Made by a program: the position numbers and the translations under genes. A stretch of DNA of 26,008 nucleotides from contig JAFGXE010000065.1 of the NCBI GenBank assembly GCA_016936785.1, positions 1 to 26,008 on the forward strand, written 5' to 3'. A model generated the notes under the pieces. That model did no database searches and was not told the origin of the DNA. It was given only the letters and a program-made list of their open reading frames with translations. Positions within the stretch are counted from its first letter, which is position 1. Each line of letters opens with the position of its first letter. Source of the DNA: Alphaproteobacteria bacterium. Its GTDB lineage: Bacteria > Pseudomonadota > Alphaproteobacteria > Rs-D84 > NBLK01. This document shows positions 5,390-7,450 of this stretch, one piece after another.

Positions 5390-6481
5390 ATGACACATCG
5401 ATATTTTTCTTATTTTTTTTGGACGGGAATTTGTCTCATTCTTGCGTTCACTCTTTTTGCCACGCAATTTCAGATGAATATCTTTTCTGGACGCCACTGG
5501 ATGCTTCTTCTAAAATATAGTGGAAAAGCGCCTCAAAGTCTTTGGATAAGCTGGGGAGGGGTTGCTGTTTTTTGGTTGGGCGGTCTTGCATTTTTTCGTT
5601 TTCGGTTAAAAGAATCTAAAATGGTTTACGATGTGAAAAGTGGTGCAAAGATTTCTGTCACAGAGAATGGTGAGTTGCGCCCTAAAATGGTTTCTGAATC
5701 ATCTTATGTGCCAGAAGAACATCATTATAAGCCTTCTACTTATTCTCCTCCAGCGCAGAAACGAGATGTCCCAAAAATTAAAGTGCCTCAGAAAATTGAG
5801 AAAAAAATTGAGCAGGAAGTCGTTGAAGCAAAAGAAGAAATTTATCAAGTTCCTGTCCAATCGCCTGTTCAAGAAGAGAAAGTTTCAAAACCATCAAAAG
5901 TTGACGTGTCTCAAAAAGAGGTTTCAAAGAAAAAAGAAATTGTTGATTTACTGAGTGTTTTGAAAGAAAAGTTTTCTGCGCAGAAAATTAAAATAGTTGA
6001 CTCGTTTGCCATGGGAAATGAAAAAATTGATTTTTATGCTTTGACAGATGACGCGTTATTTTTAGGGAAGATATTTCAAACTGAAACTGGAATCATGATG
6101 CCAGAAACAGAAAAATTTGAGGATCAAACTCCAAGTTGGATGTTGGCAAATAAAGAGCGAATTTCCTCTCCTCCGGCTGTTATGTTGGGGCTATTTGAAC
6201 AAGTTAAAGAGATGTGCAATAAGGCGTTCAAAGAAAATATTCCATTTGAAATTAAGCCATTTATTCTCTTTTCAGATCAAGATGTGCGAAAATTTGATAT
6301 GCTTAAAGAAAAATATCAATCTCGCGGTCTTTCGGTGTTGAATGCGGAGGATGATTCTTTGGTGAAGTTTATTTCAGGCGCGCATGAAGAGCCTTCAAAG
6401 AGTTTTGTGAGCTTCTCTGCAACGCTTGCGCATTATTTTGATTCAAATTACCCACTTCAATCAAATGATGAGGATAGTTAA
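5390..6481 (+). CDS. Membrane-anchored protein with a degenerate NERD/PD-(D/E)xK-like C-terminal domain
   Basis: Two N-terminal hydrophobic segments and a K/E/P/V-rich linker, then 'KIDFYALTDDALFLGKIF..TG...PSW...ISSP...IKPFILF', which follows the NERD pattern but lacks the E-x-K. The CDS is certain; the family is inferred. Confidence 0.5.
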   Translation: MTHRYFSYFFWTGICLILAFTLFATQFQMNIFSGRHWMLLLKYSGKAPQSLWISWGGVAVFWLGGLAFFRFRLKESKMVYDVKSGAKISVTENGELRPKMVSESSYVPEEHHYKPSTYSPPAQKRDVPKIKVPQKIEKKIEQEVVEAKEEIYQVPVQSPVQEEKVSKPSKVDVSQKEVSKKKEIVDLLSVLKEKFSAQKIKIVDSFAMGNEKIDFYALTDDALFLGKIFQTETGIMMPETEKFEDQTPSWMLANKERISSPPAVMLGLFEQVKEMCNKAFKENIPFEIKPFILFSDQDVRKFDMLKEKYQSRGLSVLNAEDDSLVKFISGAHEEPSKSFVSFSATLAHYFDSNYPLQSNDEDS

Positions 6482-7047
6482 TGAGTACACTCTCTTTTGC
6501 ATTTTGGCAGAATGAAATGGCGCGGATGGGATTACCTGAAATGCCCTTAAAGGATGCTCAAAAAACTTCTGAGAATCCTGTTTTTTGCGAGCCATCTACT
6601 TACCATACGCTTGTGCATGCGTTTTTGAAAAAGGTGGGTTTTGATCATAAAGATATGCAAGATTTGTGGCGAATTTCACTCACGCGAGAAGGAATTATAC
6701 AGATCCGAGAAGGAAAACTTCCTGAGAATCTTGATGTGATTTTTAAAGTGCCTTTGGATTATGGGGGTGAAGCAAATATGGAGAATATGCTTCTCATTCA
6801 GACACATCCTTTTGTCGATATTCTTTTTAAATTTATGCGTGAACAATGCAAGCGATATCATCAGTCTGAAGGTGAGAAGTCCGCTTTATATGGCTATAAG
6901 AAACCACCGAAACTTTTTGTGCCAGATTTAAACCGTCGTGTTTTTGTGCCGGCAATGTTGGGCTGGACATCCCCTGCAGGGAATGGAGCGACGGATCGTA
7001 TGACACAAGCGGGGATTAGCATTGCTTCAGAGGGACGTGATGTTTAG
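6481..7047 (+). CDS. HNH-endonuclease-toxin-like domain lacking catalytic histidines
   Basis: 'FLKKVG...IREGKLPENLDVIFKVPLDYGGEANMENMLLIQTHPFV' parallels the HNH toxin pattern G..P....VHHK.PLD.GG.N...NL.LI...P.H, with HH->IF and the last H->V. Start is TAATG-coupled. Confidence 0.6.
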   Translation: MSTLSFAFWQNEMARMGLPEMPLKDAQKTSENPVFCEPSTYHTLVHAFLKKVGFDHKDMQDLWRISLTREGIIQIREGKLPENLDVIFKVPLDYGGEANMENMLLIQTHPFVDILFKFMREQCKRYHQSEGEKSALYGYKKPPKLFVPDLNRRVFVPAMLGWTSPAGNGATDRMTQAGISIASEGRDV

Positions 7048-7450
7048 AGCAAAGGATTGTTTTAAAACATTTGATCCTGTCTCAAAAGAGCAATTAAAAT
7101 TGATTCAGGGCGCACTAAAGAATAACCGTCTCATTCCACTTCCTGAGGATTATTGTGATTTTTTAAATGAGTCAAATGGTGGCATCTGTGGCGATATTGA
7201 ATTTTATGGGACGGCCGAGCATTTTTTTAAAAAACGCTTCTTCACTTTTCCAGATATTGTGAATTATAATAAGCGCTATTTAGATGATTCATTTTTGTTT
7301 AATCGCGTGATTATTGGACAAGATAGTCAGGTCTTTTTTATCTACGATGGACAGAAAAAAACATACCTTATTTGTGATCGAATTAGTTTTATTCCAATCA
7401 AAGCCTTTCGGATTTTTGAAGATCTTAAGAAATACTTGATGATAGATTGA
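7040..7450 (+). CDS. SMI1/KNR4 (SUKH, YrhA-like) family protein
   Basis: '[21 protein letters not shown]...DIVNYN...VIIGQD....[12 protein letters not shown]' is a SUKH signature. GAGGGA precedes ATG 7040, which overlaps the upstream stop. Confidence 0.8.

Follow-up and report, generated by a model that had tools for sequence, protein, structure and literature searches.

The 26,008-nucleotide window analyzed here (the whole stretch of DNA, positions 1 to 26,008 of contig JAFGXE010000065.1, assembly GCA_016936785.1) comes from an alphaproteobacterium of the GTDB order Rs-D84, family NBLK01. Between positions 5390 and 7450 it contains three open reading frames (ORFs) on one strand, designated g1, g2, and g3, which encode a putative membrane protein with a NERD-like domain, a protein with an HNH fold, and a SUKH protein. 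Homology, structural models, and gene order trace this operon to a YhhZ/YrhA pair, an HNH-DNase toxin with its SUKH immunity protein, that became joined to a disarmed membrane NERD-like protein. Gene order in related families likewise places the ancestral home of the trio in the virD4 operon, which encodes the coupling protein of a type IV secretion system (T4SS). The trio is single-copy, vertically inherited, and under purifying selection across an order of reduced alphaproteobacteria. We tentatively favor, at a little less than an even chance, the explanation that its products form an inner-membrane complex that assists VirD4 without being catalytic, a complex built from a domesticated, disarmed toxin–immunity pair and the NERD-like protein.

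Descent of the trio from a toxin–immunity pair and a membrane NERD-like protein

The central gene, g2 (6481-7047, plus strand), encodes a stand-alone YhhZ-type HNH-fold protein of 188 amino acids (aa). Its model, with a predicted local distance difference test (pLDDT) score of 85.4, consists of helices followed by a beta-beta-alpha core and a disordered tail from residue 162. The core, delimited by model secondary structure and motif alignment at residues 78-129 (6712-6867, plus strand), shows the strands (84-88 and 103-107) and the helix (108-129) of the beta-beta-alpha-metal fold. Matches in the AlphaFold DB are named ‘HNH endonuclease’, with E values down to 5e-9, and the top matches among solved structures by VIA-align are all HNH: Cas8-HNH at Z 5.7, together with the teneurin C-terminal region, colicins E7 and E9, and the GVE2 and Gme HNH enzymes (Z 4-5.7). 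A sequence search of g2 against solved structures gave no match, and nothing was found for it in Pfam or NCBIfam. Foldseek against solved structures gave no significant match for the g2 model or for the model of the g1 C-terminal domain (C-domain), and for both the fold was assigned from AlphaFold DB clusters and VIA-align.

The catalytic histidines of this fold have been replaced. Within a core that shows G78..P81-E-N83, P91, G95-G96, N102, and Q122, the HH pair is represented by I87-F88 and the H-x3-H of the helix by V112 and F116. The general-base position at the end of strand 1 is F88 here, the residues seen there in the order being L, M, V, F, or W, and the metal-ligand positions (I87, V112, and F116 here) are variable within the order as well. 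No g2 protein of the order has a His at any of these four catalytic or metal positions, which vary freely, and the ortholog alignment shows no conserved substitutes at the former site. The structural Asn of the H-N-H motif has been kept, N102 being at least 90% conserved. The g2 proteins of the order are also near neutral, with an isoelectric point (pI) of 5.5-8.9, versus 8.8-10.4 for the basic intact toxin paralogs. The C-terminal tail (residues 162-188; 6964-7044, plus strand) has a pLDDT below 50 and carries a conserved GGN..D.M.E.GS.M motif; in this genome it has no net positive charge.

The kinship of g2 with the YhhZ toxins was established by profile comparison. The g2 profile aligns with Escherichia coli YhhZ over 96 columns (hhalign 95.4%, E 1.9e-8), and an intact alphaproteobacterial paralog of g2 matches YhhZ by BLASTP at 6e-19. 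YhhZ belongs to group 32 of the His-Me finger proteins (PMC5714182), and the Hcp-ET1 effector, which has the same architecture, is reported to degrade target DNA upon delivery through a T6SS, or type VI secretion system (PMC6099711). In E. coli K-12, yhhZ overlaps yrhA in the same manner as g2 overlaps g3, and both loci place a YrhA-family SUKH partner downstream of the homologous HNH domain. Unlike the Hcp-ET1-type proteins, g2 begins at the HNH domain and has no Hcp or other delivery domain. It also differs in lacking the HH pair and the helix His, in being neutral rather than basic, in its extra conserved C-tail, and in being a single-copy, strongly constrained core gene. Furthermore, the trio includes a membrane NERD-like gene, and its ancestral linkage is with virD4 instead of a T6SS.

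A second comparison is offered by the IncHI2 plasmid pK29 (NC_010870.1), where a member of the same HNH family stands beside a YrhA protein near transfer genes (a TraG N-terminal domain protein and TrhH). The plasmid protein, however, has 353 aa, including an N-terminal part, and retains HH..N..H, its match to the g2 family is weak (30% identity, E 5e-4), and its neighbor is an F-type TraG, with no coupling protein.

The third gene, g3 (7040-7450, plus strand), encodes a 136-aa SUKH protein of the SMI1/KNR4 type and YrhA family. It scores above the cut-offs of both Pfam SMI1_KNR4 (PF09346; 25.9 bits against 25.4) and the NCBIfam YrhA family (NF038335; 56.8 bits against 55), and it lies downstream of g2 in 28 of the 29 loci examined in the order. 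Among SUKH proteins, Syd binds SecY. PMC3113570 describes SUKH proteins as immunity proteins and also covers Syd and other domesticated members, in which the fold has likewise moved from immunity to another cellular role. Syd, in contrast, stands alone, whereas g3 retains its ex-toxin partner. As a Kyte-Doolittle scan found no hydrophobic segment in g2 or g3, both products are taken to be cytoplasmic.

The first gene, g1 (5390-6481, plus strand), encodes a 363-aa putative inner-membrane protein in which a disordered linker connects two transmembrane (TM) segments to a NERD-like C-domain. The predicted membrane anchor (5402-5596, plus strand) comprises hydrophobic residues 5-32 and 51-69 in the Kyte-Doolittle scan, with a ‘NIFS..HW’ loop between them that is conserved in the ortholog alignment. 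Basic residues follow the second TM segment, and by the positive-inside rule the C-domain therefore probably lies on the cytoplasmic side. The linker (5627-5950, plus strand) is about 106 aa long and rich in K, V, E, S, and P; its length and sequence vary between orthologs.

The C-domain of g1 (5951-6478, plus strand) has a NERD-like PD-(D/E)xK fold without E-x-K. Its model (pLDDT 87.6) finds as best AlphaFold DB cluster matches almost exclusively proteins named ‘NERD domain-containing protein’ (top E 6.5e-8, TM-score 0.72), and VIA-align against solved structures returns the PD-(D/E)xK nucleases Can2, BstEII, NucS, XisH, and Card1 at Z 7-8.4. It shares with the NERD proteins (PF08378, PD-(D/E)xK superfamily) the fold and, behind the core strands, the W...SP signature. 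It differs from them in lacking E-x-K, in its membrane tether, in its acidic character (pI 4.8), and in having no Pfam match: none was obtained at E up to 1, PF08378 included, nor was any found in NCBIfam. In the ortholog alignment, G-x-[I/V/L] occupies the E-x-K position and the D...(D/E)-x-K catalytic motif is missing. The only near-invariant residues are E239, W250, S260-P261, and F350, of which E239 is the sole conserved acidic one. Judged from these alignments, the nuclease sites of g1 and g2 are both gone.

Paralogs of g1 also occur outside the trio. On contig C103 of the same genome, a stand-alone paralog of 403 aa (locus positions 781-1992; profile E 5e-19) has the same two TM segments with a ‘W.F.I....HW’ loop, joined through a charged linker to a NERD-like C-domain. 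Next to it lie genes for a putative multi-pass membrane protein and a putative biotin-carboxylase-like protein. Further paralogs of 418-494 aa are present in genomes G020, G040, and G011.

Homologs of g2 arrange themselves by the state of the catalytic site. A word-indexed homolog search returned 13 proteins, none of them named, and when 201 sampled genomes of the class were searched with a g2 profile, 21 of them contained relatives. These were of two kinds: VirD4-linked proteins and weaker matches of 180-510 aa, the latter often arrayed in tandem with a SUKH gene behind the array (loci L041, L042, and L045). A search of 1.84 billion representative proteins then gave 444 family members, and motifs were scored on 161 homologs, namely the best 150 of the 444 plus those from the earlier homolog search. 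The main classes were HH..H (n = 54), H-x..H-x3-H (n = 39), and a His-less class (n = 34) that includes the protein in the window. The HH..H class has a median N-extension of 179 aa and a profile match that stops near position 119, whereas in the His-less class the median extension is 0.5 aa and the match reaches position 181. Since the match ends at 168-181 in the two disarmed classes versus about 119 in the toxins, the conserved C-tail is a shared derived feature of the disarmed forms; accordingly, it is common to the VirD4-linked homologs and unmatched in toxin-type ones.

The motif itself reads V-H-H-K-x-P ... N ... H in the array paralogs and V-H-[L/V/I/R/Q/M]-K-x-P ... N ... H-x3-H in the VirD4-linked proteins, which have lost the general base and kept the three metal-binding His. 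By these motifs, g2 of the order is the most eroded stage of a series from active through half-disarmed to fully disarmed forms.

Regarding the arrays, L041 (2274-4077 and 7589-8690) and L042 (2466-5249) hold tandem sets of three to four intact, strongly basic HH-type paralogs with a SUKH gene after each array, and one protein of the L042 array has two HNH domains. They look like real toxin–immunity arrays belonging to the same family.

Across the order, the behavior of the trio is the reverse of that of polymorphic toxins: it is single-copy, fixed, and constrained. A single copy of g2 is present in 39 of 41 genomes, which span six families and sizes of 0.5-1.1 Mb. Of the two genomes in which it was missed, G040 has a g1 fragment cut at a contig end, and the other is G011 (84% complete). 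The three genes are adjacent in 27 of the 29 loci, the others being one locus cut by a contig end and one, in G034, without g1. This recurrence, in 39 genomes and 27 syntenic loci, means that the domain and gene calls are not due to chance. In G034 (contig C14, locus positions 1180-3538), pal lies upstream in place of g1, and g2 is more eroded, with GL instead of GG and a Ser where the structural Asn should be.

Selection was estimated as the ratio of nonsynonymous to synonymous substitution rates (dN/dS) for species pairs with dS below 1. The estimates come from closer pairs in family f3, as the nearest relatives of the window are saturated (dS 1.3-2.0). Values were 0.04-0.13 for g2, 0.19-0.29 for g1, and 0.12-0.40 for g3, making g2 the most conserved gene of the trio. 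Toxin-like diversification, multiple cassettes, and patchy spread are not seen; there is one copy at a fixed locus, with strong constraint on g2. Neutral decay of the trio was considered and is ruled out by the dN/dS values.

An original prediction, made from the letters of the window, had described g1 as two TM segments, a long linker, and a NERD-like domain without E-x-K, g2 as an HNH-like protein with replaced His ligands, and g3 as an SMI1/KNR4 protein, the three forming a domesticated module without a delivery domain. The hydrophobicity scan, the fold matches, the ortholog alignments, and the family scores bear out each of these descriptions, and the general idea of domestication agrees with the single copy, the vertical inheritance, the purifying selection, and the lost active sites. 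In addition, the genes are conserved together, all three are under purifying selection instead of neutral decay, and no conserved residues substitute for those lost at the former catalytic site of g2.

Association with the coupling protein VirD4

In other families of the class, the trio is found around virD4. All 11 loci from 11 such genomes have the order virD4-g2-g3, and in the three loci with sufficient flank (3/3) virD4 has upstream of it the gene for a g1-like protein, which carries two TM segments and, after a linker, a NERD-like domain. The g2 proteins at these loci are 184-433 aa long and directly follow a coupling protein of 675-796 aa (PF02534, TraG-D_C, TrwB_AAD_bind), with the SUKH gene next. 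These g1-virD4-g2-g3 operons contain orthologs of g1, g2, g3, and VirD4, and their g2 proteins have the same C-tail. They differ from the arrangement in the order of the window, where virD4 has moved away and g2 has lost the N-terminal ‘MWDWS’ tag, the linker, and the three metal-binding His. Most of the VirD4-linked g2 proteins (L030-L039) begin with a conserved ‘MWDWS/MFDWT/MWEWS’ tag, after which comes a linker of 40-250 aa that is variable and often rich in Pro and Gln, and both elements are missing from the order of the window.

The coupling protein itself has been retained by the order. One VirD4 of 700-780 aa is present in each of the 41 genomes (41/41), and the copy in this genome lies on contig C42 (locus positions 135-2267) with the Walker A sequence APPGTGKT. 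It scores 600-700 bits against the g2-linked VirD4 proteins versus 200-460 bits against second VirD4 copies in those same genomes, and the VirD4 proteins of the order cluster with the former set and away from the latter. Among the 201 sampled genomes of the class, 14 have a full-length ortholog of this VirD4; g2 is adjacent in 12, and in the remaining two (G078 and G199) the contig breaks exactly at the expected g2 site. No disarmed g2 was found without an orthologous VirD4 among the genomes searched, and wherever a genome of the order allowed a judgment, the trio and the orthologous VirD4 occurred together. VirB4 and VirB10 are also present in this genome. Since VirD4, VirB4, and VirB10 are on three different contigs, its T4SS genes are scattered.

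A segment of VirD4 follows the same distribution. About 59 aa (residues ~292-350, ARANDYF...G.W) are kept by all g2-associated VirD4 proteins and are absent from a sister clade of VirD4 without g2, which makes the segment a candidate docking site.

Operon layout and genomic neighborhood

Both gene junctions of the operon overlap, as the original prediction had indicated. At 6477-6481, a TAATG joins the TAA stop of g1 to the ATG of g2 through a shared final A, and g2 overlaps g3 by 8 nt if ATG 7040 is the start of g3. The ORF of g3 also extends to an alternative start at 7022; ATG 7040 is favored because the orthologs are 134-150 aa long and a GAGG box lies upstream. Such a GAGG-type Shine-Dalgarno sequence precedes both internal starts, those of g2 and g3.

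The proposal that the operon is transcribed from a leaderless promoter stands in part. A promoter-like TTGAAT-17-TATACT (5354-5382, plus strand) agrees with the consensus at 9 of 12 positions; its end is separated by 7 nt from the g1 ATG at 5390, and no Shine-Dalgarno sequence occurs between the two. Because this AT-rich stretch holds many similar matches (11 found versus 6.2 expected from shuffles), a leaderless g1 mRNA starting from this element is plausible but unproven. No terminator-like hairpin was found in 5200-7600. At its downstream end, g3 converges on glyA, and the 3' ends of the two genes overlap by 26 nt (7425-7450).

The operon lies among housekeeping genes in an assembly of 0.76 Mb and 110 contigs. 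The neighbors in the window encode ribosomal protein S20, iPGM (phosphoglycerate mutase), a DEAD-box helicase, SHMT (glyA), and FolD, and further ones encode an EF-hand lipoprotein, a U32 peptidase, XseA, TsaD, and lipid A biosynthesis proteins. Two large adjoining ORFs of 901 and 600 aa at 15237-19817 have no Pfam match. A VirB8-like label for positions 1-705 (minus strand, an open-ended frame of 235 codons) is unconfirmed, with no Pfam match at E ≤ 0.1.

Possible roles and significance of the trio

The explanation that we rank first is that g1, g2, and g3 act together on VirD4. In this proposal, g2 and g3 would have kept the mutual binding of a toxin and its immunity protein, and the long linker of g1 would position its C-domain on the cytoplasmic side of the inner membrane. 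The resulting complex could serve VirD4 as an adaptor or gate in substrate recruitment, with the disordered C-tail of g2 as the likely docking peptide, and would not cleave DNA. A functional analogy may be drawn with the Dot/Icm coupling complex of Legionella, in which IcmS, IcmW, and LvgA are small cytoplasmic substrate selectors on the coupling ATPase (PMC7251119), although that system is of type IVB and its adaptors have no sequence or fold kinship with the trio. A more specific and more doubtful version holds that a dead HNH toxin, a SUKH ex-immunity protein, and a dead membrane NERD protein are standing subunits of the VirD4 complex throughout a large alphaproteobacterial clade. They would constitute a new class of T4SS adaptor for substrate recruitment or gating, made from a recycled toxin–immunity pair, whose g2 tail docks on VirD4, perhaps on the 59-aa insert.

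Several observations weigh against a role at VirD4. The trio is not adjacent to virD4 in the order (contig C42 carries virD4 in this genome, and in G020 the distance is 38 kb), and given this separation the trio could act without it. The sister clade of VirD4, which follows virB11 where the flank is readable (clearly in G171), has neither g2 nor g3, and VirD4 proteins have no general need of the module. The joint loss of the 59-aa insert and of g2/g3 is suggestive, but it is a single evolutionary event that carries no statistic. Furthermore, G034 has no g1 at the trio locus, and the conserved g2 tail fits a secretion signal equally well.

This last point leads to the strongest competitor, a rather unlikely one, in which g2 is a non-enzymatic T4SS substrate whose C-tail is recognized by VirD4, with g3 in the role of chaperone and g1 in that of a membrane receptor passing g2 on. 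Secretion signals of VirB/D4 systems are C-terminal, and the g2 tail is conserved, disordered, and confined to the two disarmed classes. The orthologs of other families stand directly behind virD4 with their ‘MWDWS’ tag and Pro/Gln-rich linker, and the family from which g2 descends is one of secreted effectors, Hcp-ET1 passing through the T6SS (PMC6099711). The tail, however, has no net positive charge, and a protein with a neutral surface and no enzymatic site has no evident activity in a target cell. Effectors also usually evolve fast, whereas of the three genes g2 evolves most slowly (dN/dS 0.04-0.13). Since such conservation is unusual in an effector, the adaptor or gate was ranked above the secreted client.

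Independence from the T4SS, with the trio serving for example in envelope or chromosome-related housekeeping and the virD4 linkage as a mere relic of history, appears somewhat less probable still. In all loci of the order the trio is apart from virD4 and among housekeeping genes (here the DEAD-box helicase, glyA, and folD), in relatives it lies near tolQ/tolR or pal, and g1 has a stand-alone paralog at another site in the genome. Nevertheless, T4SS genes are scattered in such genomes regardless, here over three contigs, the trio and the orthologous VirD4 are found together in each judgeable genome of the order, and a disarmed g2 never occurred without that VirD4 among the genomes searched.

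It is very improbable that g2 and g3 remain a working toxin–immunity or addiction pair, acting through non-canonical catalytic residues or poisoning by binding. The toxin-then-SUKH order and the translational coupling do resemble YhhZ/YrhA and the IncHI2 pair. Against this, the former site has no conserved substitutes, the invariant Q122 and N102 also occur in real toxins, and the basic charge of the toxins has been lost. In addition, g2 is single-copy, not polymorphic, without a delivery domain, and under strong purifying selection across six families. We give equally little credence to the suggestion of the original prediction that the module is a decoy or sensor, in which g3 would neutralize incoming YhhZ-type toxins of competitors while g2 and g1 serve as bait or signaling parts. 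Orphan immunity genes are common, and g3 belongs to a fold with that background. SUKH proteins are immunity proteins (PMC3113570). The analysis itself produced nothing in favor of this role: g2 is under more constraint than g3, g3 has not diversified, and the locus is a fixed core locus of very small genomes, whose presumably host-dependent life should make attack by other bacteria rare.

The same prediction had also offered a T4SS-associated DNA-binding complex, and its two halves fared differently. The T4SS part is supported by the genes flanking virD4 in 11 genomes and by the presence of VirD4 in all 41 genomes of the order. DNA binding, however, is unlikely for the trio, because g2 is near neutral and the g1 C-domain acidic, whereas the toxin paralogs are basic. 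The claim of an undescribed system agrees with our literature searches for a VirD4-linked disarmed HNH/SUKH/NERD module, which found no description; all of its parts belong to known families.

Toxin–immunity pairs are regarded as mobile, fast-evolving weapons, and here one has become fixed and has long been kept, even in genomes of only 0.7-1.1 Mb with little to spare. Catalysis was lost in two visible steps, the general base in the VirD4-linked form and then all metal ligands in this order. The window shows the end stage of this erosion, with every His and the N-terminal tag gone, the trio split from virD4, and the module nonetheless retained in strongly reduced genomes. The active, half-disarmed, and fully disarmed forms make up a series of natural experimental controls. 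How VirD4 chooses its substrates in relatives of the Rickettsiales is poorly understood, and if the trio does work with VirD4, it would represent a previously unrecognized accessory complex of type IVA secretion in these bacteria.

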